From Deltaproteobacteria bacterium (GTDB taxonomy: Bacteria > Myxococcota > SpSt-1050), in NCBI GenBank assembly GCA_026416535.1, contig JAOAFA010000059.1:61941-125940 (forward strand): a stretch of DNA of 64,000 bases, written 5' to 3'. The position numbers and the translations under genes are program-made. Below, piece after piece: positions 8,130 to 46,796 of the stretch; the stretch's first letter is position 1, and every line of letters starts with the position of its first letter. Under the pieces are notes generated by a model. It did not search any database. It had not been told where the DNA came from and saw only the letters and a list, made by a program, of their open reading frames with translations.

Positions 8130-9428
8130 ATGAAAAATGTTTTTTATAGTGTGATCCTTCTTATGATTAATTCATCTGTGGTTTTGAGTTCAGGTTCAGA
8201 CGTCATAGGTTTTGGCGCAAGAGGTATTTCAATGGGAAATACAGGTGCTTCTGCCAGTAATGATTCTTCTGCTGTTTTTTATAATGCAGCCCTTCTTATA
8301 GAGATAAAAAACCACTTGATGTTAGGTACTACACTTACAGATATGTACATTGATATAGTACCGTTTGAAGGGAGTAGTGGGGACAAGTATGGTGGTGTGA
8401 CAAATATGTATGGTTTATATCTCAGTGGCAAACATGATTTAAAGTTTAATAATTTTGCATTTGGTTTTGGGATCTATTTGCCAACAAATAGAATTCATCT
8501 TGAAAAGAGTTATTTTCCTGATGAAAGGGAACATTACTTTTCTAACAAGATCTATCCGGAATTGTATGGTGTTAGGTCAGAGGGAGAGTCAATATATTTG
8601 GCAGGTGCATATAGAGTTTTAAGTAACTTTAGCATCGGTGCAGGAACAATTATGAAAATTAACTCTTTTGCGCCATCGTATCAATACCTTCCCTCAATTA
8701 TAAGAACAGATCAAATGTATCTGAATCTTAATGCGGAAGAGAAGATAAAGTTGTTTCCGGTAGCCGGGATATTCTATAGACCAGTGGATAACTTGTCTAT
8801 TGGACTCTCTTATAGAGCAAGCACTTACTTTAAGATTGTATCTAGATCTTACACTGAGGTGCGTGGACTTACGAAGCCTGGTGAGCCAAATGTTTTTGAG
8901 GAGGTTTTTCTTTTTCAGTTTACTCCAAATGAATATACGGGGTCGATTTCAGTTAGATATTCTAATTGGTTAGCTACCACCGATTTAGTATATGAGGAAT
9001 ACTCAGATTATAGGGATTCGCATAATAGGAAACCTGTTGTTCCGTTTAAGGATATTATCTCTGCCCACTTTGGGGTAGAGCATCTTTTAACTGATTCCTG
9101 GCTGTTGAGAGGTGGTTATGTATTTAAACCTACACCTGTTCCTGAGCAAAATGGACGTACGAACTACGCGGATACTGATGTACATTATGTCACTCTTGGA
9201 AATGGATTTATATGGAATTATGAAGGATGGAAACTGCGTCTTGATTTATATGTCCTTTTGATGTTTTTCGAAGAGAGAATAAATAGAAAGACCAAAGATG
9301 CTTTAGATCCAGTAATTGATGAGGATCAGAACTTAGAAGGTATTCAGAGTAGAAATCCAGGGTATCCTGGATTCACAATGTCAGGGTTTGGTTATGGTGG
9401 AGGGATTTCATTAAGTATATTTTATTAA
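8130..9428 (+). CDS. outer-membrane beta-barrel, FadL/OmpP1/TodX-like transport protein family
   Basis: Signal peptide. An N-terminal 'GFGARGISMGNTGASASNDSSAVFYNAALL' resembles the FadL-family N-terminal hatch consensus (G.G.r..g.GgA..A...DaSAvfyNPAgL). The C-terminus ends in an aromatic residue ('ISLSIFY'). Confidence 0.5.
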   Translation: MKNVFYSVILLMINSSVVLSSGSDVIGFGARGISMGNTGASASNDSSAVFYNAALLIEIKNHLMLGTTLTDMYIDIVPFEGSSGDKYGGVTNMYGLYLSGKHDLKFNNFAFGFGIYLPTNRIHLEKSYFPDEREHYFSNKIYPELYGVRSEGESIYLAGAYRVLSNFSIGAGTIMKINSFAPSYQYLPSIIRTDQMYLNLNAEEKIKLFPVAGIFYRPVDNLSIGLSYRASTYFKIVSRSYTEVRGLTKPGEPNVFEEVFLFQFTPNEYTGSISVRYSNWLATTDLVYEEYSDYRDSHNRKPVVPFKDIISAHFGVEHLLTDSWLLRGGYVFKPTPVPEQNGRTNYADTDVHYVTLGNGFIWNYEGWKLRLDLYVLLMFFEERINRKTKDALDPVIDEDQNLEGIQSRNPGYPGFTMSGFGYGGGISLSIFY

Positions 9429-22400: not shown

Positions 22401-24671
22401 ATGACCGGTCTTCTCAACTATGGCAGATATTTTATAATTTGCTGTGTACTTCTCTTTTTATCATGCTCGCTTAGAGACAAAGATTTGCAAATAGAAGATT
22501 TTGTAGATGCATCCATTGATGATATTCTAGATGTTGAAGAAGTGTTAGATGTAAATAATTTGGGGGATGCACATCAGGATATATTGAAGTGTGAAAGTGG
22601 GGTTGTAGGTATTTATGGCCCTTATAATAAGATCGAAGTTTCTTTACCTGCGGAACTATATCCATTCCCTAATGACTATTATGTAAGAGTAGATTCTACA
22701 AGTCCTACTAACATTCGATTGAATTATCCAGGTGATGTATTTTTAAATGGCATTAACGAGCTTGTCGGATTCCCTACATATCCATTTTTGATATCAAGGT
22801 TTGTTGTGCAGTCTAAACCTGAGGGTAGATATAAAGTGATTCCGATAGTAAATAGTAGGTATAACAAGATATCATTTGATGAGGATTCGGTGTTTTTATT
22901 ACCTTTGGATGCTTTGTTTGAGCATAAGGATAAAAGGCAGATAGAGAAACATTTGGTTCCTTTAGAAATGCACTCAAGTGATAATGGTTCTTTGTTTGTG
23001 TTAGTTAGAGAAATTCTTTCCGAGGAGAGAGAATATTTATTTTTTATTACCGAAAGACTTAAAGTTAGAGTAATAGACACAGATGATAATTCATTAGGAA
23101 GCGAGGAATGTGTATCAACTACTCAAAACTTTGAGGCTGTGAAGTCGAGGAGATCTGTTGAATCAAGGTATCCCGGATTGGAAGAATATAGAAAGTCACT
23201 TGAGCCTATATTTGATGAACTTGAAGAGAAAATCAACATTAGCAGAAAAAATATTATTATGTTTTCAAAATTTAGGACTGGTAAGAATGTTAGCATATTA
23301 AGAGAGATTAAGAAATCCATTGATGATATGACTGACTTTAATCCAGAGATAATAGATGTCTTCAAGCCAATAGATGAAGGAGGTAGATTGACGGATAAGA
23401 TGAAAGGATATCTGCCTTGTGCAGCAGATATAAAGAGTGTGGATGAATTTTATGATTATGATTTTTCAAATGTGGACTCTGTAATTATAGGATATTATAA
23501 CTCGCCCAATTACTTAGATGAGAGAAACAGGCTCAATTTTGATCCAATCAAAAGGACATATGAATCAGTAAAGACTAATCGAGTTCAATTTATTATTATT
23601 TTGCCCAAAAATAATTTCATAAGAGGGATTATCCCTCCATTCCCTCTTGTTATTTTTCAGCACGCTTTTGAAGTTTGTAAGGAGACATCTTTGGCCTTGG
23701 CGGGAACATTTACATCGTTTGGATTTGCCATTGGTGCAATTGATATGATTGGTCATGGTGTGAGATCAGGGAAGCTCAGATGTGAAGATGGAAGGGTGTA
23801 TTGCGATACTCCTTCCTTAGATTTTATAAAAGTGGATGACATGCTTACTACTGTTAATTGGTTAAGACAGTCTGCAATTGATACTATTGCCTTTTATAAG
23901 ATGCTAAAAGGTCTTAAAATTGATGTTGTTCCTTCGATCTCGGATGTAAATGGGTCCGTAATTGTCAATAAATCTGGTGATGGCATAGATGATTTTGATT
24001 CTGAAAGACTTCTCTTTACTTCTCAATCATTAGGCTCTTTTTTGGGTATCTCTATTGTTAGCCTGGTAGGTGACTTTAAGGCGTCGGTGTTTAATGTGCC
24101 TGCAGCTGCATTTTACAAGCTGTTGTCAGTTGAACTCTCTGAAAATGGAGATATATGGGAGCTTAAGGATATGTATCTTCCATTCATAGTATCAATCCAG
24201 ACTCTTGTGGATGAGATAGAGGTTTTGAATTTTTCAAGACTTTACAATAGAGAAAATGGCGTTAATATAAATGTTCTTATTCAGGCAGCTAAGAATGATG
24301 AGGTAGTTCCACATAATGGAACTGAAATGCTTGGATATTTTATGAAATTGGAACAGGTAGATGCCCTTAGAGTAATTGAAGACGTTCCACAGGTCACTTC
24401 TCCACATTCAGGTTCATACCATTCAGAGAAAATTAGTGCTGCCTATTATCAATTTTATCCAGCAGAACATATTTTTTATCTTAAGAGTGTTAATAAGGGT
24501 GTTAGGGAATCAGCACAGTATCAGTCTGCAACCTTTTTGAGGAGCTCACTTTCTAGGAAGTATGAGGGGGGATTAATTATAGATCCGTTCAGTTGTTCTC
24601 AAGTAAGTGAATTTGTGAATGAAGCGAAAGGCTACCCACTCGAAGTATATCCTAATCCATTTTGTAAATAA
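22401..24671 (+). CDS. large hypothetical lipoprotein (possible alpha/beta-hydrolase-like region)
   Basis: Lipobox 'LLFLSCSL'. It encodes 756 aa. An 'FTSQSLGSFLG' small-x-Ser-x-small elbow appears about 540 aa in. The C-terminus ends '...EVYPNPFCK'. Confidence 0.4.
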   Translation: MTGLLNYGRYFIICCVLLFLSCSLRDKDLQIEDFVDASIDDILDVEEVLDVNNLGDAHQDILKCESGVVGIYGPYNKIEVSLPAELYPFPNDYYVRVDSTSPTNIRLNYPGDVFLNGINELVGFPTYPFLISRFVVQSKPEGRYKVIPIVNSRYNKISFDEDSVFLLPLDALFEHKDKRQIEKHLVPLEMHSSDNGSLFVLVREILSEEREYLFFITERLKVRVIDTDDNSLGSEECVSTTQNFEAVKSRRSVESRYPGLEEYRKSLEPIFDELEEKINISRKNIIMFSKFRTGKNVSILREIKKSIDDMTDFNPEIIDVFKPIDEGGRLTDKMKGYLPCAADIKSVDEFYDYDFSNVDSVIIGYYNSPNYLDERNRLNFDPIKRTYESVKTNRVQFIIILPKNNFIRGIIPPFPLVIFQHAFEVCKETSLALAGTFTSFGFAIGAIDMIGHGVRSGKLRCEDGRVYCDTPSLDFIKVDDMLTTVNWLRQSAIDTIAFYKMLKGLKIDVVPSISDVNGSVIVNKSGDGIDDFDSERLLFTSQSLGSFLGISIVSLVGDFKASVFNVPAAAFYKLLSVELSENGDIWELKDMYLPFIVSIQTLVDEIEVLNFSRLYNRENGVNINVLIQAAKNDEVVPHNGTEMLGYFMKLEQVDALRVIEDVPQVTSPHSGSYHSEKISAAYYQFYPAEHIFYLKSVNKGVRESAQYQSATFLRSSLSRKYEGGLIIDPFSCSQVSEFVNEAKGYPLEVYPNPFCK

Positions 24672-24901: not shown

Positions 24902-26698
24902 TCATAATCTATATTCTTCCTTATCAACAAAATATTGGGCTATTGACCGTTTCAAGGCAATAATGTTTGATTGAGGTGTTGTGTATAGCATATTAATTAC
25001 TTTCATGTCTTTTTCAAGTTCTTCTCCTGAAGTTATTGATGATGCAAGCAAGCGTAACTCTGAAAATGATTTTTCATAAGTTTCTAAGACGAAGGCATTG
25101 GCCATATCAACTTGAATTTTAGCTCTCTGAGGGCCTAAAAGTTCAATCGAGTTTAGTGCCCGTCCACATACCGAATCCATTGCACATATCGCTATTGTAA
25201 TATCAGCAAGGTACCTTATGTATTCTTGCTCCTTGATAAGGGTTTCGCCAAACTTTTGAATGCATTTGTTGAACAGGTATAGATATCCCCTTTTTGTGAG
25301 TTCGGTGAGTTTTACTGCGTCTGATAATGGTGAGTCTTTGATATCTCTTGTTATTAAGGATGGATCTTTCAATTCTTCCATCATCCTCTTTGATACTTCA
25401 GAGATATTGATTTTGCCTGAGGATATTCTTCTTATGATGGTTGAGATTATAACAAGTCTATTAATCTCGTTAGTTCCTTCAAACAACCTATTTATTCTCG
25501 AGTCTCTATATGCGCGTTCGACAGAGTATTCACGAGTATATCCATAGCCGCCATGTATTTGAACTCCTTCGTCAACTACATAATCGAGTATTTCCGAACC
25601 AAAGATCTTCATTATGGAGTCTTCTATTGCAAATTCTTCGATTCCTTCTATTGTCCTTTGTTGGGCATCGGGGGCAGATTTGTCGATGTTATGTAGGATC
25701 TTATCCATTAGTCCAGCAACTCTGTAGGAAACAGTTTCTCCCGCGTAGATTTGAATTGCCATGTTGGCAAATTTTTCTCTAATCATGCCAAATGATTCTA
25801 TGGGCTTACCAAACTGTTTTCTTTCCTTTGCATACTTTATAGATGTCTTGAATACGTCTTTTGCGGCCCCAATGCATATAACCCCTAGTTTAAATCTGCC
25901 AACATTTAATATATTAAAGGCTATTTTGTGTCCTTTCCCTATTTCTCCAAGTATATTTTCCACTGGGACCTTGCAGTCTTCTAAGATAAGTGGACAGGTT
26001 GAAGAACCTCTTATGCCCATTTTATTTTCTTCTTTGCCAATTGTAAGTCCAGGAGTTCCTCTCTCAATAATAAAGCCCGTAAATTTATCCCCATCTATTT
26101 TTGCAAATACTGTAAATACATCAGCAAAACCAGCATTTGTAATAAACTGTTTGCTACCATTAAGAATATAGTATTTTCCATCTTCACTAAGTGTTGCTTT
26201 AGTTTTTGCTGCAAGTGCATCTGAACCCGATCCTGTCTCTGTTAATGCGTATGCACCTAAGAGCTCGCCTGTTGCAAGTTTTGGGAGATATTTTTCCCTT
26301 TGTTTATCATTTCCAAAGAAGAGAATGGGGAGTGTGCCAATGCCAGTGTGTGCCATGAGTGCAACTGAGAACGAACCACTCATTCCAATTACTTCACTGA
26401 TTGCCATAGAGGCAGCCTTTGACAATTCTGCACCCCCAAATCTTTCTGGGATGTCACACATCAATAAACCTAATTCTCCTGCCTTTTTTAGAAGGCTCAC
26501 TAGGAGTTCGTAATCGTGTTCATCAATTCTTTCAATGTTTGGCATGACCTCATTTATTACAAAATCTTGTGCAGTATTTCTGAACTGGATTGTATCTTCA
26601 TCAAAGTCTTCGGGGGTAAAAAATCTTTTTTCGGTGGCTCTATCAAAAATGAAGCCTGCGCCCATCTGAGGTGATAATTTTTCATAAATACCTGACAT
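24902..26698 (-). CDS. acyl-CoA dehydrogenase, long form with C-terminal helical extension
   Basis: Blocks such as 'YALTETGSGSDA', 'LNGSKQFITNAG' and 'QIHGGYGYTREY' indicate the ACAD fold, with an extra roughly 200-aa C-terminal domain. My preferred start is the ATG at 26698, preceded by AAAGGAGG. The ORF track start at 26740 is the alternative. Confidence 0.75.
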   Translation of the reverse strand: MSGIYEKLSPQMGAGFIFDRATEKRFFTPEDFDEDTIQFRNTAQDFVINEVMPNIERIDEHDYELLVSLLKKAGELGLLMCDIPERFGGAELSKAASMAISEVIGMSGSFSVALMAHTGIGTLPILFFGNDKQREKYLPKLATGELLGAYALTETGSGSDALAAKTKATLSEDGKYYILNGSKQFITNAGFADVFTVFAKIDGDKFTGFIIERGTPGLTIGKEENKMGIRGSSTCPLILEDCKVPVENILGEIGKGHKIAFNILNVGRFKLGVICIGAAKDVFKTSIKYAKERKQFGKPIESFGMIREKFANMAIQIYAGETVSYRVAGLMDKILHNIDKSAPDAQQRTIEGIEEFAIEDSIMKIFGSEILDYVVDEGVQIHGGYGYTREYSVERAYRDSRINRLFEGTNEINRLVIISTIIRRISSGKINISEVSKRMMEELKDPSLITRDIKDSPLSDAVKLTELTKRGYLYLFNKCIQKFGETLIKEQEYIRYLADITIAICAMDSVCGRALNSIELLGPQRAKIQVDMANAFVLETYEKSFSELRLLASSITSGEELEKDMKVINMLYTTPQSNIIALKRSIAQYFVDKEEYRL

Positions 26699-26874
26699 CT
26701 TACCTCCTTTAATGTGAATAAGTAAAATTTTACTTAACATTATTTAAGGTTGCTTGCAAGTCTTTTATGACACATTGCGTAAAAATATAATATCTTGAGA
26801 CTTATTTATTTTGGTTGACCAAAAGATATTTATTTGATTGTATTTATATACCTAAGAATTGAGGGAGGTTTTTT

Positions 26875-30768: not shown

Positions 30769-31899
30769 TTAGTAGTGTTTTTTTATGCGGTATTGTTGTG
30801 ATGACTGCCCATCTGGATTGATGACCTTGAAATTGTATTCTATGATTGTTTGAACATTGACTTTTATCTGGATTTTTGTCTCACTTCTGAATATGTAGGT
30901 GAAGTTGTTGTATTCTGTTATTTCCTTCCATTCATTTCCATAGTCAATAAATACCTTTGAGGCATCCTTTACAAAGAAACAACCATCTATGTTCCAATAG
31001 ACAGTGCTGCCAACCTTCCAGTCTTTTGGATCATAGTCAATGACTCTAGGTGCAGTTATTACACATTGTCCATCAACACAATTGTTGTCGTGACAACAGT
31101 TTAACATTTTTACAAATTCCAGACCAGAGGGTTTACATAGGTAGATATCATTGTTTATACATTTTTTCTCTTTTTCCGGTTCGCATATCATACATTCACC
31201 GCCTGAACATCCGATTGTGCACTCAATCTCTTCCCATTCTGTCCCTATAGGATTACATTTTATGGCTCTGTTATCATTACAGAATTTATCAGAGGGCAGA
31301 CAGACTACGCACTGATTGTTGAAACATTTATAACTACATTTTTCTTTTATGTATATTCCATCTTGAGTACATATTTTTATATTTTCATCATCAGCACATA
31401 TTTTTTCATTTGGAAGGCATTCCATACAATGATCATTCTTGCATCCAATTTTACATTCTTCTTTCAAAACTAAGTTGTTGCTTTCATCGCATATGTAAAG
31501 GTTACTGTCTTTACAGATTAGATTTCCAGCGTTGCAGATTTCGACATCAGATAGCGCATCTACGTATTTTGTGTCTCCAGTGTTAAAATTGTCATAATTT
31601 TCATTACTGTCATAAGTTATGCTATCCATAGTGGTTTCTTTAATGTCATATTCGGGTTCAGTGTCATAGTGTATTATGTCTGTAATTTGTATATCGATTA
31701 TTTTGATATCCAAGCTTGGAATATCCGATAAATCATTTGCTTTTATGCATTTTCCACTTTTTAGATCGCATCTGTATCCTTCAATACATTGATTTTGGGA
31801 GTTACAGAATCTATCTTCAAGTATAGAATAGTCAACAGAGCAATGCACTAATATAGTTGTTGTTAGAAGAAGTATAATGTAAAGCGCTTTCATCCTCAT
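30769..31899 (-). CDS. secreted cysteine-rich repeat protein (four tandem 6-Cys modules plus a C-terminal beta-rich domain)
   Basis: Signal peptide. Four consecutive modules of roughly 40 aa each fit C-x7-8-C-x10-12-C-x3-C-x4-C-x2-C. An acidic Asp/Tyr/Thr-rich linker precedes them. Confidence 0.5.
   Translation of the reverse strand: MRMKALYIILLLTTTILVHCSVDYSILEDRFCNSQNQCIEGYRCDLKSGKCIKANDLSDIPSLDIKIIDIQITDIIHYDTEPEYDIKETTMDSITYDSNENYDNFNTGDTKYVDALSDVEICNAGNLICKDSNLYICDESNNLVLKEECKIGCKNDHCMECLPNEKICADDENIKICTQDGIYIKEKCSYKCFNNQCVVCLPSDKFCNDNRAIKCNPIGTEWEEIECTIGCSGGECMICEPEKEKKCINNDIYLCKPSGLEFVKMLNCCHDNNCVDGQCVITAPRVIDYDPKDWKVGSTVYWNIDGCFFVKDASKVFIDYGNEWKEITEYNNFTYIFRSETKIQIKVNVQTIIEYNFKVINPDGQSSQQYRIKKHY
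31056..31542 (-). repeat. four tandem copies of a roughly 120-nt unit encoding a 6-Cys module inside CDS 30769-31899
   Basis: The protein-level periodicity (ICxDxNLYIC..ECKIGC..HCMEC / ICxDENIKIC..KCSYKC..QCVVC / FCNDNRAIKC..ECTIGC..ECMIC / KCINNDIYLC..NCCHDNNC..QCVI) maps to this nucleotide span. Confidence 0.5.
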
Positions 31900-36425: not shown

Positions 36426-37103
36426 ATGATTAAAAATTGTGTCTTAATAATCCTACTCTTTTTTGCAGGTAGTGCTCTTGCTGAGAATGTTCCACTAAAT
36501 TTGGGCTTTGGGCCGGCTTTGAATTACATTCCCAAGATAATATCTAATGACCAGTTTTTACACTATTCGCTGAAGCTCGATATATATGCAGTTCTTGATA
36601 GAGATTTTATTGAAAAACACAAATCAAAAATACCAAAAAAATATAGAAAATTCGTAGAAAGTAAAGATGAATTAAGAGTATCCTATATATTTATCCCAGA
36701 GTCTCTATTTATATCTCCTAAGTACCAAAATACTGGTATATATGGAATAAATTTCAGACCTCTGTCTTTAGGTCTACCCATTGTCAAGACAGATACTTTT
36801 AAGAACAGATTAAACATGGGTATAAACCTTACCTATTTATTTATACATTCTGATAAGATCTTTAATGAAAAAGGTAGCATGCACTTTTTGAGACCAGCTT
36901 TAAATTTGCAATTTGACAACCTGTTAAAAATATCTAAAAAGTTTTTGGTCTCTTTAGGAGTTGACACCTACTTCTTTATTCCACAAAAAGTCGAAGATAA
37001 ATCAAACATTTTTGAGAGTGGAGATATAAACGATAGCATTTGGTTTATCGGGCAAATTTATGTTTTACTTAACCCACGAGTGATGTATAAAGTAAAAATG
37101 TAA
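36426..37103 (+). CDS. hypothetical secreted (possibly outer-membrane) protein
   Basis: Signal peptide 'LLFFAGSALAEN'. Alternating hydrophobic pattern. No motifs. Confidence 0.35.
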   Translation: MIKNCVLIILLFFAGSALAENVPLNLGFGPALNYIPKIISNDQFLHYSLKLDIYAVLDRDFIEKHKSKIPKKYRKFVESKDELRVSYIFIPESLFISPKYQNTGIYGINFRPLSLGLPIVKTDTFKNRLNMGINLTYLFIHSDKIFNEKGSMHFLRPALNLQFDNLLKISKKFLVSLGVDTYFFIPQKVEDKSNIFESGDINDSIWFIGQIYVLLNPRVMYKVKM

Positions 37104-38666: not shown

Positions 38667-40091
38667 ATGAAAAGGATATTTTTATCTTTTTTAACGCTTG
38701 CATATCTAGTTGCCATTTCATGTGACCCAAATATTGGGAGCGATGATGTTCATACTCCAATCCTTAGCACCTTTGATAAGGAGAGAGGGTTGATTATCTT
38801 ACCAAACGATCTCCTTAAAAACCCTGAGACAGGTAGACTAGCTCTACCTGAAGCAAGTGATGATTCTGAACTCACGAAAGAGATCAAAAGCTTTATGAAC
38901 ATGCTCGATGGCTGGTTGGTATCTCAGACCATTACCATACCTTTTGAATATGAATTAGATAAAACTACAATTAGACCCGAGAATGTCCTTCTCTTTGAGA
39001 TTGATATAAAAAATAAAACAGTTACTAAAAAAATGGCATCTGAATACTACGTTCTTTACAACTTCTCAAAGACCCCATCAGACAGACCGCCCTTTTTTAT
39101 AACTGTTAAAAATAAGCCAAGTGAAAAGAGTGGTGCTATGCCTGAAGACTTCAAACAAGGATATCTTTATCTAGTTGCAGTCACAAGTGCAGTGAAGACC
39201 AAGGATGGTAAGGAAATTATTGAGAATCCGGTTTATTACTTTTTGAAGAAGAGGGAACCACTTCTCAATGCAGCAAAAAAGTCTATCACAATATTGTCTG
39301 ATGAAGAGGCACTCCTACTCGAGGTGCATAGAAGATTATTTAATGAGCTTTTTAAATTGGTTGAAACAAAGGATAAAGATATCAGATCAAAAACAATTGC
39401 TTTTTCCTTTTTTTCAATTCAATCAGGAGCAAGAGCCCTCTTTAATCCTGCCATTGTTGGGCAGATTTTACCACAACCAAATGACCTAAACGGTAAGGCA
39501 AACGCACCTATAGATGTAAAGCCTTATATCTATTATGACCTGCCACTCGATGAGAGAACTGTGGCAAAAGGGGTGACGATGATGAAATTGACAGGAGATC
39601 AACCTATAATAATTGAACTCGCAAAGATAGAGGTCATAGAAGAAAAACCAAAGTTTAAACTCCAAATAACTCCTAAAAATTATTTAGATAAGAATTCAAC
39701 GTATTTGGTGTTTACAACAAATGATATCAAAAGTAAGCATGGAGTTGAAACAAGTGCATATTCTACATTCTCAATTATCAGAGCCAACTCCCCATTAATT
39801 ACAAAGACTAGTGATAACAATTATGTTTTGAATTCCCCTCTGATCGATAACACCCTGGATGCCCTTATCTTTGCTTCAAAAATGGGTATGTTGTCTGAGG
39901 AGGCGAATAGGAATATCGCATTAGCTACTCCTGATGATTGGAGGACCGCATATGATCTTTTCTTACAAAACCTGATAAAACTTGAAGAATTGAGGAATGC
40001 CTATCAGCCGCTTTTTAATAACATCGAGAGAGGCGGTATTCCTAGAAAAAATATTACATCCCTTTGGACATTTTCAACAACATCAAAATAG
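38667..40091 (+). CDS. hypothetical lipoprotein
   Basis: Lipobox 'LVAISCD'. GGAGG ribosome-binding site. It encodes 474 aa with no recognisable motifs. It sits immediately upstream of the FadL-like barrel gene. Confidence 0.45.
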   Translation: MKRIFLSFLTLAYLVAISCDPNIGSDDVHTPILSTFDKERGLIILPNDLLKNPETGRLALPEASDDSELTKEIKSFMNMLDGWLVSQTITIPFEYELDKTTIRPENVLLFEIDIKNKTVTKKMASEYYVLYNFSKTPSDRPPFFITVKNKPSEKSGAMPEDFKQGYLYLVAVTSAVKTKDGKEIIENPVYYFLKKREPLLNAAKKSITILSDEEALLLEVHRRLFNELFKLVETKDKDIRSKTIAFSFFSIQSGARALFNPAIVGQILPQPNDLNGKANAPIDVKPYIYYDLPLDERTVAKGVTMMKLTGDQPIIIELAKIEVIEEKPKFKLQITPKNYLDKNSTYLVFTTNDIKSKHGVETSAYSTFSIIRANSPLITKTSDNNYVLNSPLIDNTLDALIFASKMGMLSEEANRNIALATPDDWRTAYDLFLQNLIKLEELRNAYQPLFNNIERGGIPRKNITSLWTFSTTSK

Positions 40092-40110
40092 AAATTTTAG
40101 GAGGTCATCG

Positions 40111-41313
40111 ATGAAAAATTATTTTATCTTTCTAATAATATTTATGCTCTCAGGATTAGGACATGCTAATGGCTTTTTTCTCTATGAAGTTAGTCCATCA
40201 AGCATTTCCCAAGGGGGGGCCACGATAGCGGATGGGAGTGAACCGTCAGCCGTATTCTTGAATACAGCATCTATTACAAGACTTAAAGGATTTAACTTTT
40301 CACTTAACCTAAACATATACTTAAGCGACTCGGAATTTACTGGAGAGCTGTCGAAAAAGACAACAAAGGCTAATACTGGTTTCTTCCCTACTCCTTCTCT
40401 ATTTGTAACTTACAAAACACATAAATGGATTTCAATGGGTTTGGGTGTTTACACAGCATATGGTTTGGGAGTCAATTGGCCTGAGAAATGGGAAGGCTAT
40501 CATTTAGTCGAACATTCAGAACTACAAAGTTATTCAATTCAGCCTTCCTTGGCCTTAGGTCCTTTTCACGGTTTTTCACTCGGTGTAGGATTTAACCTGG
40601 TTTTAGGTGCTGTAAATTTCCAACGTGGTATACCGTTTGGCGACGGTGTATATGCAAAAATGAGGTTGGGAGGAACAACAACAGGTTATGGAAACAATGT
40701 GGGTCTTTTCTATGAACCAACGAAATGGCTAAGAATGGGACTTCATTATAGATCCCAAATTGTAATGAAGCTTACTGATGGAAAGGTAGATTTTGATGAT
40801 GTCCCCTTGCCTTTTACCTCAAATCTGAAGGATCAAAAGGTGAAGACTGGACTCATTCTTCCTCAGTTTCTAGGCATAGGGATGAGAGTAGCACCTTTTC
40901 ATAATCTTGAGTTAGAACTAGATGTTAATCAGATTTATTGGTCATCATATAAGAAACTAACATTTGAGTTTGAAGATAAATCACTAAACCAGATTCAGGA
41001 AAAAAAGTGGGAGGATGCCCCCCAAATAAGACTTGGGGTACAATATATCCTTAAAAAATGGATATTAAGATTGGGAATTATTTATGATATAACGCCGATT
41101 CCGGATGAGACATTAGATCCCATGCTCCCTGACAATGATAGAATAGACTATTGTTTAGGAATTGGTTATTCAATTGGGAAATTTAAGATTGATACCTCAT
41201 ATATGTTTGTAGATGTTTTAAAGAGAACAGTTGGGCAAGAGAAGAACTATTTTCCTGGCTCATATGATGCTTTTGTTCATTCATTCGCATTAGGGTTCTC
41301 AGGTTCCCTGTAA
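40111..41313 (+). CDS. outer-membrane transport protein of the FadL/OmpP1/TodX family
   Basis: The signal peptide is followed by 'NGFFLYEVSPSSISQGGATIADGSEPSAVFLNTASI', the FadL N-terminal hatch consensus. It ends 'FSGSL'. TAGGAGG lies 7 nt upstream of the ATG at 40111. The ORF track begins 38 codons earlier, inside the previous gene. Confidence 0.55.
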   Translation: MKNYFIFLIIFMLSGLGHANGFFLYEVSPSSISQGGATIADGSEPSAVFLNTASITRLKGFNFSLNLNIYLSDSEFTGELSKKTTKANTGFFPTPSLFVTYKTHKWISMGLGVYTAYGLGVNWPEKWEGYHLVEHSELQSYSIQPSLALGPFHGFSLGVGFNLVLGAVNFQRGIPFGDGVYAKMRLGGTTTGYGNNVGLFYEPTKWLRMGLHYRSQIVMKLTDGKVDFDDVPLPFTSNLKDQKVKTGLILPQFLGIGMRVAPFHNLELELDVNQIYWSSYKKLTFEFEDKSLNQIQEKKWEDAPQIRLGVQYILKKWILRLGIIYDITPIPDETLDPMLPDNDRIDYCLGIGYSIGKFKIDTSYMFVDVLKRTVGQEKNYFPGSYDAFVHSFALGFSGSL

Positions 41314-41410: not shown

Positions 41411-43723
41411 ATGTTCTACTCTTTTAAGAGGATAAAATTACAGCATCTTATTATCCTATGCTCTATTATCTTTCTACTACCACTTGTAATTGTGTTAAAA
41501 TACTATCAATATGTTGAACAAAAAGGGGAGATGTTAGATAATTTTGAAAAACTAAGGCAGATTACGGACAATAATATAATTACGTCAATAAAGCTTGTTG
41601 ACAGTGCATATCATATCATAGAAGAGGCTGTTAAGAGTAATCTCGAAAGATTTTTAAATGAACTACATAATATTTATAAAGAGAAAAACGGTGATATTGA
41701 AAAAATTGATTTAGAGGAATTCAAAAACAGTCTTAATTACAACTACAAATCGGGATTGGATTTCTACATCATTGATGAAAATAATGTTATAATAAAAACG
41801 ACCTATAACAGGGATCTTGGATTAGATTTCAAAAAATATCCCGATCTATCTGCATTCTTTGATAGAATAAGAAATGACAATAAATTTGTCATAGACAGAT
41901 TAACTGCTGAGACATTAACAGGGAGACATAGGGTATTTGCATATTTACCAACCTATGATCACAGGTACATACTTGAGGCTGGATGTGGTCTTTTACAGTT
42001 TGGTGATATCCTAGATCAACTTAGTTATATGCGCATTGCTGAAGAGATAAAGGACATAAATCCGTTAGTAGAATACATAAGGGTATACGATAGACATGGA
42101 AACATCTTCGGGAATCCAGATTATAGACCGACTGAAGAATTGAAGTCCCAGATATTTCAACTTTTTTACAAAAGGGAAGGAACCAAGTTCGATTTCGAAA
42201 ATGAAAAAAGATATTTTATCTTTGTAGATTTAAACGACCCAAGATATCCCACTGATTCCAGCAAGATTATAGAGGTCAGATATAAGATCTCAGCAATTAA
42301 GGATAAGATAAATAAGGCTTTTGTTGATATATTATTAAATGGGCTTCTTATCTTTTTAATTACGCTTTTTGTAGCATACGCTATCTCTTATTTTATAGAT
42401 CACCCTATATCAAAAATGGTAAATGAGATAGATGAGATATCTGGAGGGAATCTCAATAAGCGCATCACAGAATCAAATATAATCGAACTAAATAGACTTG
42501 CACATAATATCAACCGTATGGTAGACAATATCAAATCACACATTGAAAAAATAAAAAGACAACAAGAGGAGACTTTAAGATTAGAGAATCAACTGAGACA
42601 ATCTCAAAAAATGGAGGCAATAGGTCTTCTTGCAGGCGGCATAGCCCATGACTTTAATAATATTATGTCTGCAATACTCGGCTATACCAACTTGTTGCAA
42701 ATTCAATTTGCAGAAAATAAAGAGGCAAAGAATAAGCTGGATCAGATAGTGCTTGCTATTGAGAGGGGGACAAGACTAATAAGAGTGCTTCTAACTTTTA
42801 GTCGTAAGCAGAGCATTAACTTAAGGGTTGTCGATTTAAATGAAGTCATATCTAACATTAGTAAACTGCTAAGAAGGATAATCGGAGAGGACATTAGACT
42901 TAATATAAGATTCTCAAATGAATCTGCGACTGTTCTGGCTGACATCACAAATATTGAGCAGGTAATTATGAATCTTGTAACGAATGCCCGAGATGCTATG
43001 CCACAAGGTGGGGAATTATCAATTAGCATTGATTTTACCAATGTAGATGAATATAAAGCTGCTGAACACAATGTAAAGGCGGGGAGATATGTACTCATAA
43101 GGGTATCTGACACTGGCAAGGGAATTGAAAAAGAAATTATAGACAAAATATTTGATCCATTCTTTACGACAAAAGAATCAGGAAAAGGGACAGGGCTTGG
43201 TCTTTCTATAGTATATTCAATAATAAAACAACACAATGGATTCATATCTGTAAATTCCGAACTCAATAAAGGAACTACATTTGAAATATTCTTGCCATAT
43301 TTGAGTGAATCATTTAAGGAGGATGATTTATCAAATCAACCTGAATTTATTGTGGGTGGGAGTGAGACAATTTTACTTGTTGAAGATGATGATGATATTA
43401 GATCAAGCTTGAGATATATCTTAGAAAAATACGGGTATAAAATAATCGAGGCGTACAATGGATTAGATGGCTATAACAAATTTGTGGCTAACCAGGATAT
43501 GATTAATCTTATAATAACTGATGTTGTTATGCCGGAAGTGAGTGGGGTAAAGATGTATGAAAGAATATGTGAAATAAGGAAGGATGTAAAGATAATATTC
43601 ATGAGTGGATATAGTGAAGAGATAATTGAACAAAGGGCTGCAAAAAATCTTGAGGTCCTCTTCAAACCTATTCATCCCCATGAGCTCCTTAAAAAGATTA
43701 GAGAGAAATTGGAGACAACCTAA
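41411..43723 (+). CDS. hybrid sensor histidine kinase/response regulator (periplasmic Cache-like sensor, HAMP, HisKA, HATPase_c, C-terminal receiver)
   Basis: Two transmembrane segments flank a roughly 270-aa periplasmic domain. The H-box is 'GIAHDFNNIMSAILGYTNLL'. G1/G2 boxes are 'DTGKGI' and 'GTGLGLSIV'. The receiver reads 'ILLVEDDDDIRSSL...DVVMPEVSG'. Confidence 0.8.
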   Translation: MFYSFKRIKLQHLIILCSIIFLLPLVIVLKYYQYVEQKGEMLDNFEKLRQITDNNIITSIKLVDSAYHIIEEAVKSNLERFLNELHNIYKEKNGDIEKIDLEEFKNSLNYNYKSGLDFYIIDENNVIIKTTYNRDLGLDFKKYPDLSAFFDRIRNDNKFVIDRLTAETLTGRHRVFAYLPTYDHRYILEAGCGLLQFGDILDQLSYMRIAEEIKDINPLVEYIRVYDRHGNIFGNPDYRPTEELKSQIFQLFYKREGTKFDFENEKRYFIFVDLNDPRYPTDSSKIIEVRYKISAIKDKINKAFVDILLNGLLIFLITLFVAYAISYFIDHPISKMVNEIDEISGGNLNKRITESNIIELNRLAHNINRMVDNIKSHIEKIKRQQEETLRLENQLRQSQKMEAIGLLAGGIAHDFNNIMSAILGYTNLLQIQFAENKEAKNKLDQIVLAIERGTRLIRVLLTFSRKQSINLRVVDLNEVISNISKLLRRIIGEDIRLNIRFSNESATVLADITNIEQVIMNLVTNARDAMPQGGELSISIDFTNVDEYKAAEHNVKAGRYVLIRVSDTGKGIEKEIIDKIFDPFFTTKESGKGTGLGLSIVYSIIKQHNGFISVNSELNKGTTFEIFLPYLSESFKEDDLSNQPEFIVGGSETILLVEDDDDIRSSLRYILEKYGYKIIEAYNGLDGYNKFVANQDMINLIITDVVMPEVSGVKMYERICEIRKDVKIIFMSGYSEEIIEQRAAKNLEVLFKPIHPHELLKKIREKLETT

Positions 43724-46026
43724 TCTCTTCTAATAACTGATTTAATAAATCCAATGTCTCCAGTCTTGATGCCAGAGATGTTTGCCTCATCTGTATTAAT
43801 ATGCATTGCTAATCTATAATCTTTGTTAACTCTTACAAGAACTTCGTCAAAAATAATTCCTCTCTCCCCTTCAACCTTGACTTGAACTAAGTCTCCATCC
43901 CTTATTCCAAATCTTAGCGCATCTTCAAAAGACATATGTATGTGTTTTAATGTCAGTATTACCCCTTTGTTTATTTTTACTGTGCCTTTTGGTCCTTCAA
44001 TTGTAATCCCGGGTGTACCTTCGATATCACCCGATGCCCTTATCGGGGCGTTGATCCCCAACTTAAATTCTTCTGTCATTGATATCTCTACCTGAGTGGC
44101 ATTTCTCTCAGGTCCTAAAATCCTAACATTATCTATCCTACCCTTTGGGCCTATAAGATTTACCCTCTCTCTACATGCATATTGACCTATTTGTGACAAT
44201 TCGTGATCAAAGGTTAGTTTATACCCTGCGCCAAATAGCTTTTCTACATCATCCCTTGAAAGGTGTACATGATATGCAGATACTTCAATAGGAATAGGAA
44301 TTGGTGTTATTTTATTGATTTCCTTGGTGATTTCAAAATTCTTTATGGCATCAAGACACCCCTTGGCGATCATAAATTCCTCGTCGGTTGGGATGATAAG
44401 GACCTTGACCTTTGAACCTTTTGCTGTAATATCGCATATCTGCTTGAAGCCGTCAGCTCTCTTATTTAAATCTTCGTCAATCTCGATCCCCATAAATTCC
44501 AAGCCTTGTAGAGATAAACTTCTAACCAGAGAAGAACCCTGACCAATACCACCAGTAAATACAATTACGTCTACACCACCCATAGCTGCAATATACGAGC
44601 CGATATATTTTCTCAATCTATAAGAGAAGGATTTAATGGCAATTAATGCCCGATAATTTGATTGGCTTGCAGCGTTTTCAATTTCTCTCATGTCATTAGA
44701 TAAACCAGATATACCTCTTAGTCCTGAAAACTTGTTGATAATTTTATCAAGTTGATTGTAGTCTATTTTCTCTGTCCTCATTATGTGAATAAGGACGCCG
44801 GGATCGACATCGCCACACCGAGTTCCCATAATGAGTCCTTCCACAGGGGTAAAACCCATGCTTGTATCTATTGATCGCCCATGATCTATCGCGCATATCG
44901 AGCATCCATTTCCCAGGTGGCACGTAATAATCGAAAGAGATGAATATCTCTTGCCTAGAAATTCAGCTGCCTTCAAAGAGACATATAGATGAGATGTCCC
45001 ATGAAATCCATACCGCCTTATCTTCTTTTCAGAATAATATTCGTAAGGGAATGCATATAAGAATGCATAGGGAGGCATGGTTTGATGGAATGCTGTATCA
45101 AACACCGCTATTTGGATAGCATTTTTAAATAACATTCTTGATTCTTTAATCCCAATGAGATTGATGGGGTTATGGAGTGGTGCATAGATGGACGCCTTCT
45201 CAATCTCCTCTTCTACTTCGTCGGTAATAATTGTGGGGGAATTGTATTTATCACCTCCATGAACAACCCTATGTCCAACTATATCTATGTCGCAGGGATC
45301 TTTGAATACCCTAAATCTATCACTCGACAGTACTTTTATCATCTCTAAGAATGCCTCTTTGTGGGTGGGCACAAAATTAATACTCTTTTGCTCGTTCCCC
45401 ATGTAGGTAAATTTATGAATTGCCTCTCTCTCTCCTATTCTTTCGATAATACCTTTAAATGGCTCATCTGGCTTATAAGTATCATAGTAGGCATATTTTA
45501 AGGATGAGGAGCCACAATTAATTACAAGTATCTGCTTCCTTTTTTCAAAATCTAATGAAATTCTCCTATAATCATTAGATTTTGTTTCTGTTTGGAACTT
45601 TGAAATCTCAGAGGCTCTTTGGACTATGAGCCTTGATAAATACGAGATTGCTGACTGTTCACTTATAAGCAATCTTGAAAATAGGCTCTGTGGGATCAAT
45701 AATATTTCTGAATGCCTACTCCCTATTACATTTACTACAGTCCTCTCGTTAGTAATTAAAGCTATTTCGCCAAAGATATCATATTCCTTAAACACTCCTA
45801 TTACTCTATGAGTTCCATCATTTTCTACCCTTACGATCTTAACACCACCTGAAAGAACAACTCCGAGAAATCTCCCTTTATCTCCTTCTTCAATGACGGT
45901 CTCATTCTCTTCTATTGTAACAAGTCTCGAACCGTCTATGATAATATTCAATTTTTTATCTGAAAAATTGTTAAATAGCTCTACTTTATTTTTTAAAATT
46001 GAAAACAAAATTTCTCGTGAGATCAT
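43720..46026 (-). CDS. three-domain fusion: cyclic-nucleotide-binding (CAP-effector) domain, acetate kinase, and PduL-type phosphate acyltransferase
   Basis: The N-terminal cNMP domain reads 'GDKGRFLGVVLSGGVKIVRVENDGTHRVIGVFKEYDIFGEIALI'. AckA blocks are 'ILVINCGSSSLKYAYYD', 'VGHRVVHGG', 'LHNPINL', 'RYGFHGTSH', 'CHLGNGCSICAIDHGRSIDTSMGFTPVEGLIMGTRCGDVDP' and 'VFTGGIGQGS'. The C-terminal PduL duplicated motifs are 'VSAYHVHLSRDDVEKLFG' and 'LTLKHIHMSFEDALRFGIRDGDLVQV'. Confidence 0.7.
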   Translation of the reverse strand: MISREILFSILKNKVELFNNFSDKKLNIIIDGSRLVTIEENETVIEEGDKGRFLGVVLSGGVKIVRVENDGTHRVIGVFKEYDIFGEIALITNERTVVNVIGSRHSEILLIPQSLFSRLLISEQSAISYLSRLIVQRASEISKFQTETKSNDYRRISLDFEKRKQILVINCGSSSLKYAYYDTYKPDEPFKGIIERIGEREAIHKFTYMGNEQKSINFVPTHKEAFLEMIKVLSSDRFRVFKDPCDIDIVGHRVVHGGDKYNSPTIITDEVEEEIEKASIYAPLHNPINLIGIKESRMLFKNAIQIAVFDTAFHQTMPPYAFLYAFPYEYYSEKKIRRYGFHGTSHLYVSLKAAEFLGKRYSSLSIITCHLGNGCSICAIDHGRSIDTSMGFTPVEGLIMGTRCGDVDPGVLIHIMRTEKIDYNQLDKIINKFSGLRGISGLSNDMREIENAASQSNYRALIAIKSFSYRLRKYIGSYIAAMGGVDVIVFTGGIGQGSSLVRSLSLQGLEFMGIEIDEDLNKRADGFKQICDITAKGSKVKVLIIPTDEEFMIAKGCLDAIKNFEITKEINKITPIPIPIEVSAYHVHLSRDDVEKLFGAGYKLTFDHELSQIGQYACRERVNLIGPKGRIDNVRILGPERNATQVEISMTEEFKLGINAPIRASGDIEGTPGITIEGPKGTVKINKGVILTLKHIHMSFEDALRFGIRDGDLVQVKVEGERGIIFDEVLVRVNKDYRLAMHINTDEANISGIKTGDIGFIKSVIRRD

Positions 46027-46796
46027 TTCTATCCTCCAGCTGATGATTAACTATATAAAAACAAAAAATATTACAATATAATTATTACACCGTATGAATC
46101 ATGGCTATTATCATGCCCTAATTGGTATACAAAATTTACAGTCATTATTGTTAAATGTTATATTTTATAAATAACAATAGTTAGTTGTCTCATGTCGATT
46201 ATTCATTATATGGTATGGAAAGCAAGATCAAAAAAACCTACTAATGACTTTGACTACCCAAATAGAAACTCATTATAACAGGGGATTGAAGCTAACACCT
46301 CCATATTTATAGATGGGATAATAGGTGCAAACATCTGTATTAAGTGGTAACATCTCTCGTCTATTTTATGTATGCTTATCATTAGTATTAAGGGCAAAAA
46401 ACTGGAAAAAGTTGGGGAGGCAGGTATTAATGTATGTATATGAGCGATTCGTGAGAGTAATATGCAGAGATTAGCAAAAGATATTGAATGATTTAGTGGA
46501 TATGGGGCTGAAGAGGTAAACTTCCAGGAAGGGATAATCGTTACGCAGGTACAATTTGGTGTTTTGTTGTATGCCATAAAAGTGAAATAAGGATGCAGTA
46601 GGCAGTGACATAACGACTCTAAGATTCCGCTGTTGTAGTTATGGTGGGGCATTTTTTGCTTGAAGATTAAAGGATATTGTGATAATTCCTTTCCGATTTC
46701 GATTTCACACAGCTCTCGAGAGTGCGGTGGTTCCATTCTGGTGCCGCATTCGATGACGGGGCTGGAGGCTTAAACCAAGTTTTAGGAGGTAGTGAG

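Follow-up and report, generated by a model that had tools for sequence, protein, structure and literature searches.

A predicted acetate kinase-PduL fusion enzyme with an N-terminal cyclic-nucleotide-binding-fold domain, member of a widespread family in uncultured bacteria

This study concerns a 64,000-nt stretch of DNA from a Deltaproteobacteria bacterium (GenBank assembly GCA_026416535.1, contig JAOAFA010000059.1, positions 61,941 to 125,940 of the forward strand), here called the window, and one gene within it whose product joins a cyclic-nucleotide-binding (CNB) fold, an acetate kinase (Ack) and a PduL-type phosphotransacylase. We define the "fusion gene" as the complete open reading frame (ORF) at 43720..46026 on the minus strand (stop codon included), which was delimited by an ORF scan and by three Pfam domains. 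It begins with ATG, runs for 768 codons with no internal stop, and has a GGAGGA Shine-Dalgarno sequence about 7 nt 5' of the start. The original prediction, made from the letters of the window, was that three domains lie on one polypeptide in an unbroken frame, and both statements held. Pfam places cNMP_binding (PF00027) at residues 36-120 (60 bits, E 2e-16, cut-off 27.5), Acetate_kinase (PF00871) at residues 166-555 (477 bits, E 4e-143, profile positions 2-392 of 392) and PTAC/PduL (PF06130) at residues 579-753 (251 bits, E 7e-75, profile positions 1-175 of 176). NCBIfam agrees at the subfamily level.

All parts of the gene are read from the minus strand. The CNB sensor domain covers approximately residues 1-150 (45577..46026), as judged from PF00027, from matches to PKA-R and PKG structures in the PDB and from an AlphaFold2 (AF2) model. 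A linker of low model confidence (~residues 151-164, 45535..45576, mean column conservation 0.66) joins it to the acetate/propionate kinase domain, which matches the full length of PF00871 (~residues 165-560, 44347..45534). The Ack-PduL linker (~residues 561-577, 44296..44346) has a mean column conservation of 0.48 and zero invariant columns. The PduL-type phosphotransacylase domain (residues 578-768, 43723..44295) matches PF06130 and carries both of the His pairs expected of that family. Conservation was counted in an alignment of the best 120 homologues, and counts out of 120 refer to members of that set.

The fusion protein has many relatives. Homologues fall into at least 120 clusters at 90% identity, and the family is larger than this; all 120 listed clusters carry the three Pfam domains in proteins of about 770-780 aa, with identities down to 51%. 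Two exact N-domain peptide patterns, run against the GTDB species genomes, recovered the fusion in at least 46 species-level genomes and missed the window's own clade. All are metagenome-assembled genomes (MAGs), and they bear about 14 phylum-level labels, including Fibrobacterota/Chitinivibrionales, Kiritimatiellae, Verrucomicrobia, Planctomycetota, Binatia, Spirochaetales, Nitrospirae, Anaerolineales, Acidobacteriota, Thermodesulfobacteriota/Desulfarculales, Hydrogenedentes, Myxococcota, Elusimicrobia and Rhodocyclaceae. The figure of 46 loci is a lower bound because only two exact peptide patterns were used. The three domains lie in one frame at about 38 of the 46 loci, and the others are contig-end truncations or frameshifted assemblies. 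With the layout shared by these complete loci and by all 120 listed proteins, nothing points to a frameshift or a sequencing artefact in the window. The gene is split into two to four frames in an Anaerolineales MAG chromosome (L023), in L028 and in a Sulfuritalea MAG (L049); our suspicion is that indels in the assemblies, and not true pseudogenes, account for this.

At shallow depth, pairwise identities follow the lineages. At least nine phylum labels are mixed in one cluster at 62% identity or more, a pattern that suggests some horizontal spread or strong constraint on the sequence. The fusion proteins of two loci labelled Fibrobacteres (L013) and Candidatus Binatia (L015) are 96% identical, a sign of misbinning, mislabelling or very recent transfer.

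The window protein is an ordinary member of this widespread, database-known and uncharacterised family, which has been seen so far only in MAGs and metagenomes. An identical protein is present in NCBI as [quoted passage not shown]. The source names we encountered were only "acetate kinase" or "acetate/propionate family kinase", with fragments called "phosphate propanoyltransferase, partial". The idea of an Ack-PduL fusion has been suggested in print before: Erbilgin et al. (2016, PLoS Biol) observed the PduL signature in multidomain proteins that are mostly annotated as Acks and lack encapsulation peptides, and proposed that such a fusion may replace Pta and aid channelling (PMC4784909). No paper placing a CNB domain in the Ack-PduL context was found in our literature search. 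The possibility that the architecture is a common and well-annotated family, raised at the outset, was therefore half right: the family is common and public, and Ack-PduL fusion with channelling was suggested in 2016; its annotation is poor, and experimental work on it was not found.

Several lines of evidence indicate that the central domain has kept the machinery of an acetate kinase. The fusion protein scores 484 against the NCBIfam ackA model TIGR00016 (cut-off 293) and falls below the cut-offs of all equivalog models for acetate or propionate kinase (for example 411 against 580 for NF009045). The domain matches the solved structures 1TUU/1G99 at E 1e-118 (phmmer), is 44-47% identical to solved Acks, and in the AF2 monomer model, for which 32 family sequences served as input, superposes on 1G99 and 6IOY with a TM-score (TMt) of 0.73 (Foldseek). 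The window protein has every hallmark catalytic residue, including those of the PHOSPHATE1 motif. With residues numbered as in Methanosarcina thermophila Ack (MtACK) and mapped through the phmmer alignment to 1TUU, N7, S10, S11, S12, K14, R91, D148, H180, R241, D283, R285, G331 and E384 are each conserved in 120/120, N211 in 117/120, and the acetate-pocket residues V93, L122, F179 and P232 in 118-120/120.

The ADENOSINE motif of the kinase is unusual. It reads GGIGQGS (residues 492-498) in the window protein, as against G[IV]GEN in four different solved Acks; G331, I332 and G333 are retained, E334 is replaced by Gln in 114 of the 120 homologues and N335 by Gly in 115. This is a deviation in the nucleotide site of Ack, not a loss of the fold. 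It is specific to the main clade of the family, to which the window protein belongs, since two divergent members, P0216 and P0254, retain GIGEN. The PHOSPHATE1 motif of P0254 is degenerate (IISLDFGQKRIRF in place of VINCGSSSLKY), and its kinase domain may be inactive.

The C-terminal domain is assigned to the PduL family. It scores 258 against the NCBIfam phosphate propanoyltransferase model NF011652 (cut-off 209) and 249 bits, below the cut-off of 315, against NF040837, the model for EutD of bacterial microcompartments (BMCs). It matches Rhodopseudomonas palustris PduL (5CUO) at E 7e-47 by sequence, and this part of the AF2 model superposes on 5CUO with a TMt of 0.89 and a root-mean-square deviation of 2.3 A at 45% identity (Foldseek). 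The two His motifs picked out in the original prediction are genuine: AYHVHLS (H586/H588) and LKHIHMS (H695/H697) align to the zinc ligands H48/H50 and H157/H159 of R. palustris PduL. With numbering transferred through the 5CUO alignment and residue roles taken from PMC4784909, all six zinc ligands, H48, H50, E109, H157, H159 and H204 (H586, H588, E647, H695, H697 and H742 here), are present in 119-120/120, as are the phosphate contacts R103 and S127 (R641 and S665).

The PduL domain follows Ack directly, after a linker of about 17 residues, and the protein is therefore without an encapsulation peptide. Shell-protein genes (PF00936, PF03319) were found neither in the window nor in the related loci. 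The fusion protein is thus predicted to be a stand-alone enzyme, not a BMC-associated one. The Pta profile PF01515 gave no match at E <= 0.01 in the fusion protein and none in the other scanned ORFs of the window.

Because the catalytic residues of both Ack and PduL are conserved in the best 120 homologues, it is well supported that the protein is a bifunctional enzyme, with both activities predicted, that would interconvert acyl-CoA, phosphate and ADP with carboxylate, CoA and ATP. The earlier proposal of a one-protein module for substrate-level phosphorylation stands in this predicted form, both catalytic centres being intact as far as sequence can tell.

The N-terminal domain is related to known CNB domains. 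Its best PDB matches by sequence (phmmer) are the CNB domains of PKA regulatory subunits (PKA-R) and of PKG, which bind cAMP and cGMP. CNB structures were also among the Foldseek matches of the model (E 2e-10), the best of them being 6H4G, the PKA-R of Trypanosoma brucei. The model has a predicted local distance difference test score (pLDDT) of about 70-90 across residues 1-140, and its secondary structure runs as expected from N-terminal helices through beta strands to a helix of the phosphate-binding cassette (PBC) at residues 87-92 and an alphaB/alphaC helix at 113-147. The long alphaC helix within it, predicted at residues 124-147, runs through the low-confidence linker (pLDDT below 50 at residues 144-154) into the first strand of Ack.

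The cassette itself departs from the canonical pattern. It spans F85-V100, FGEIALITNERTVVNV in the window protein, with the family consensus FGEMSLMTGDKTMADV, and every phmmer alignment to bona fide CNB domains pairs it with the canonical cassette without gaps. T96 occupies the position of the canonical phosphate-binding Arg (R209 of RIalpha, R82 of CAP). In the best 120 homologues this column holds Thr in 103, Ala in nine, Ser in seven, Asn in one and Arg in none. The residue after it, canonically Ala, is Val, Ile or Met (V97 in the window protein). The residue before it is Lys or Arg in 101/120 and Gln, Leu, Met or Val in the rest, and divergent full-length members have Pro or His there, so that this basic residue is no conserved substitute for the Arg. 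P0216 and P0254 carry Pro-Ala or His-Ala at the two key positions. We also considered an alignment with a one-residue deletion in the cassette, which would bring R95 to the canonical Arg position; it was rejected, since the flanking Gly, Ala and Val positions line up in all phmmer alignments when no gap is introduced, and a basic residue is not conserved at position 95. The direct control by cAMP or cGMP that had been proposed for this protein is not borne out by a family in which the phosphate-binding Arg is Thr, Ala, Ser or Asn throughout and the neighbouring basic residue is not conserved.

Other features of the pocket are retained. F85, G86 and E87 are kept in 118-119/120 (G86 in 119, E87 in 118), G60 of the beta2-beta3 loop in 120/120 and R137 of alphaC in at least 90% of members. 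The Leu that follows Phe-Gly-Glu and the Met-Thr, Ala, Asp/Asn and Val/Ile positions of the cassette are also strongly conserved. None of the 120 listed clusters and none of the complete loci lacks the CNB domain. Given its presence throughout the family and its conserved pocket residues, we read the domain as a sensor that has been retained. With the ribose-contacting Gly-Glu kept and the phosphate-binding Arg gone, its ligand most likely binds in a way other than the canonical one of cAMP or cGMP. In RIalpha, R209 is the key ligand of the cAMP phosphate, and CNB families with non-canonical cassettes sense other ligands (Kannan et al. 2007, PMC2246266); the census in that paper does not mention acetate kinase. 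The ligand of the fusion family cannot be assumed to be cAMP or cGMP; it may be a nucleoside, a messenger of the non-cyclic or dinucleotide kind, or a cyclic nucleotide monophosphate (cNMP) that binds weakly.

Two side observations concern the sensor. At four Rhodocyclaceae loci (L042, L043, L046 and L047), and in this lineage only, a gene for a membrane GGDEF (GGEEF) diguanylate cyclase lies convergent to the fusion gene, 0-2 kb downstream; we treat this as a lead toward c-di-GMP as the ligand. In a protein of 364 aa (P0137), the same CNB subtype is fused straight to PduL with no Ack, and the start of a malic-enzyme gene follows. This single occurrence, on a 1.7-kb contig (L052, 91-1185 and 1263-1718), may be a real variant or an assembly artefact. 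Being one observation, it gives no more than a hint of sensor action on the PduL step.

Taken together, we consider it likely that the protein is a stand-alone bifunctional Ack-PduL enzyme with a retained CNB-fold sensor whose ligand is probably non-canonical. The strongest competing explanation, in our judgement possible and still rather unlikely, is that the N-terminal domain truly serves as a receptor for cAMP or cGMP, through which the second messenger directly switches substrate-level phosphorylation on or off. It accords with the PF00027 match above the gathering score, with PKA-R and PKG as best PDB matches and with the conserved Phe-Gly-Glu and G60. The Lys or Arg before the Thr in 101/120 might partly compensate for the lost Arg, the near-invariant R137 of alphaC could supply charge, and the incompatibility of T. 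brucei PKA-R with cNMP is not absolute at high ligand concentration (PMC10959531). Against this, the canonical column is never Arg in the best 120 homologues, and the residue before it is Gln, Leu, Met or Val in 18/120 and Pro or His in divergent members. Even the conservative replacement R209K costs about ten-fold in cAMP affinity in PKA (PMC2246266). Scans of the 64-kb window found no cyclase gene, and none recurs beside the fusion gene.

That the CNB domain binds no ligand at all, and serves as a dimerisation or scaffold module whose alphaC helices pair as in CAP and set the quaternary structure, appears to us improbable. The mean column conservation of the domain, 0.63 with nine invariant columns as against 0.75 and 0.79 in the catalytic domains, would suit such a role, as would the non-canonical PBC and the long alphaC predicted at 124-147; however, the strongly conserved cassette positions are hard to explain without a selected pocket, and the same CNB subtype also occurs fused directly to PduL without Ack. 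Least credible by far is the idea that one catalytic domain is a pseudo-enzyme, PduL for example being only a CoA or acyl-CoA sensor like the Pta-like domain of MaeB and the protein then a regulated acetate kinase: it would fit the database names, which call the fusion acetate kinase only, and the degenerate PHOSPHATE1 of P0254, which shows domain decay somewhere in the wider family, but the PduL metal and phosphate ligands and the Ack catalytic residues are conserved at 117-120/120, and the PduL part of the model fits 5CUO with a deviation of 2.3 A.

Some of our results nonetheless weigh against the interpretation of a bifunctional enzyme with a non-canonical sensor, or limit it. Among 398 CNB domains in the 150 nearest non-family CNB proteins, collected as a background set by searching a representative library with the N-terminal domain (a search led by multi-CNB proteins, in which the fusion family formed a few clusters at 50% identity), the canonical Arg is present in 281; about 29% of the nearest bacterial CNB domains are thus also Arg-less, and the Arg-less state alone is no proof against cNMP binding. 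On the enzymatic side, the PduL residue K70, a CoA contact, is variable in the best 120 homologues. MtACK N335, which is Gly here, corresponds to N337 of the E. coli enzyme (EcACK), where N337E raises the Km for ATP more than 45-fold (PMC4390882), so nucleotide use may differ from that of classical Acks. Only subfamily-level NCBIfam models exceed their cut-offs, and the substrate may have a C2 or a C3 chain. The AF2 model is moderate (mean pLDDT 75, predicted TM-score 0.55) and is of the monomer only. Its pLDDT falls to about 30-50 at residues 372-405 and 475-483, the most conserved segment of Ack (PHOSPHATE2/LOOP3), which we tentatively attribute to the shallow single-family alignment and not to disorder; the model is unreliable for this segment. 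Channelling and the physiological direction of flux are pure inference on our part, and the literature search found no biochemistry for any member of the fusion family.

The likely reading of a sensor-bearing bifunctional enzyme implies the following mechanism. The C-terminal PduL domain would act as a di-zinc phosphotransacylase that converts acetyl-CoA, and possibly propionyl-CoA, with phosphate to the acyl-phosphate, and the central Ack domain would transfer the phosphoryl group to ADP, giving carboxylate and ATP. The chemistry is reversible, so acetate activation would also be feasible, and physiology would presumably set the direction of flux. Fusion through a linker of about 17 residues would fix the two activities at a 1:1 ratio and would probably limit the escape of acetyl-phosphate, a reactive compound that can phosphorylate response regulators and acetylate lysines. 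The CNB-fold domain would be an allosteric sensor that gates the flux, its occupancy being relayed through alphaC and the linker to the N-terminal domain of Ack or to the oligomer.

A more specific version of this mechanism, which we offer tentatively and hold to be doubtful, is that the domain is a bacterial orphan CNB sensor whose ligand is neither cAMP nor cGMP (it could, for instance, be a purine nucleoside, a non-cyclic adenine nucleotide, a metabolite of the CoA type or a cyclic dinucleotide) and that it gates a channelled acetyl-CoA-to-ATP enzyme. Combined with N335G and E334Q, it would amount to metabolite-gated substrate-level phosphorylation with altered nucleotide use, widespread in uncultured anaerobes and hidden there by the name "acetate kinase".

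The fusion gene lies among genes that differ between lineages. A hybrid sensor kinase (HAMP-HisKA-HATPase_c-REC, 41411..43723, plus strand) is convergent with it, as had been noted, and the two genes overlap by 4 nt, stop codon on stop codon. Relatives of about 74% identity keep the convergent hybrid kinase with the same 4-nt overlap (L050 8304-10619; L051 7826-10141), and also a FadL-type porin and a lipase-like gene downstream. A functional link between the kinase and the fusion protein is conceivable, because acetyl-phosphate can phosphorylate receiver domains. Across phyla, no conserved neighbour (cyclase, pta or shell protein) was found, and synteny is confined to lineages; likewise, the scanned ORFs of the 64-kb window include no Pta, cyclase or microcompartment shell genes.

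On the upstream side, the rpsB-tsf-pyrH-frr cluster is divergent from the fusion gene across about 770 bp (46027-46796), again as first described, and this gap holds no convincing ORF. In the relatives of about 74% identity the upstream side is different, with a PLD-family gene after about 96 bp. Synteny therefore breaks off in the 770-bp gap, and the gap does not represent conserved regulatory sequence of the fusion gene. The proximal upstream region (46027..46200, minus strand) contains the Shine-Dalgarno sequence and two weak sigma-70-like matches, at 46191-46162 and 46171-46144 on the minus strand; the scan returned 22 sites where 13.8 were expected, so these are weak evidence for a promoter. 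No conserved operator was found in the upstream regions of close relatives, which have only the Shine-Dalgarno sequence and AT-richness in common. Nothing in the whole window reached the Rfam gathering score. The only annotation in the gap is a sub-threshold match to the rpsB leader t44 at 46688-46774 (18.6 bits, E 0.5), just upstream of rpsB; a terminator-like hairpin occurs on the plus strand at 46625-46649, and the stretch at about 46200-46620 carries no annotation.

Elsewhere in the window, at 8130-9428, 38667-41313 and 24902-26740, there are two FadL/TodX-type outer-membrane transporters, a lipase-like protein and a 612-aa long-chain acyl-CoA dehydrogenase of the ACAD9/ACADV type. This suggests fatty-acid uptake and beta-oxidation as a source of acetyl-CoA in the organism, which might in turn feed the fusion enzyme. 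Three ORFs had no Pfam match at the thresholds used: 22401-24671 (plus strand, 756 aa), 30769-31899 (minus strand, 376 aa) and 36426-37103 (plus strand, 225 aa).

If the predicted function is correct, the last ATP-yielding step of fermentation or acetogenesis-type metabolism would reside on one regulated polypeptide in many uncultured lineages, among them Fibrobacterota, Kiritimatiellae, Planctomycetota, Myxococcota, Thermodesulfobacteriota and Rhodocyclaceae. Such organisms would then be scored as lacking the pathway in metabolic reconstructions that look for Pta, and the name "acetate kinase" conceals two of the three domains. The Arg-less sensor would be a tractable bacterial test case for CNB ligands other than cyclic nucleotides, an idea that comes from work on trypanosome PKA, and the fused Ack-PduL might serve as a compact, Pta-independent part for engineered ATP regeneration from acyl-CoA. 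Specialists will perhaps be little surprised, as fusions of consecutive enzymes and of CNB domains with enzymes are familiar and the Ack-PduL fusion was flagged in 2016. What the Arg-less sensor binds, and the altered adenosine motif, are the points of greatest remaining interest.

The nearest precedent is the group of Ack-PduL proteins described by Erbilgin et al. (PMC4784909), which, like the window protein, combine PduL (two PF06130 repeats) with Ack and have no encapsulation peptide; the window protein is an exact fit. That description is one sentence long, contains no biochemistry and leaves the N-terminal CNB domain unmentioned, whereas 120/120 of the best relatives examined here carry one. 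The classical Pta-AckA pathway of E. coli and Methanosarcina thermophila carries out the same chemistry, from acetyl-CoA through acetyl-phosphate to acetate and ATP and back. The fusion protein differs from it in using the unrelated PduL fold, in joining the two activities, in adding a sensor and in having GIGQG for GIGEN. With PduL/PduW and the Gram-positive EutD of propanediol and ethanolamine BMCs it has the PduL fold and the di-zinc site in common; unlike those systems, the fusion gene stands alone among housekeeping genes, without shell genes or an encapsulation peptide.

For the sensor, a close parallel is the PKA-R of trypanosomatids (6FLO, 6HYI, 6H4G), where a cassette with Arg replaced by Thr (T318) and Ala by Val (V319) binds purine nucleosides and not cAMP (PMC10959531). 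T318 and V319 are matched by T96 and V97 of the window protein. The main determinant of nucleoside preference in the trypanosomatid protein is a Glu (E311) at the position of A202 (PMC10959531), where the fusion family has Ser or Ala. The likeness is only partial, and so the ligand cannot be transferred from one to the other. In the mycobacterial enzyme Pat (Rv0998 / MSMEG_5458), a cAMP-binding CNB domain is joined to a GNAT domain that acetylates Acs. Pat and the fusion protein thus both place a CNB sensor on an enzyme at the acetate/acetyl-CoA node, and residues 16-102 of the fusion protein give a weak match to the NCBIfam Pat model. The fusion protein differs from Pat in that its sensor sits on the pathway enzymes themselves and has a non-canonical cassette.

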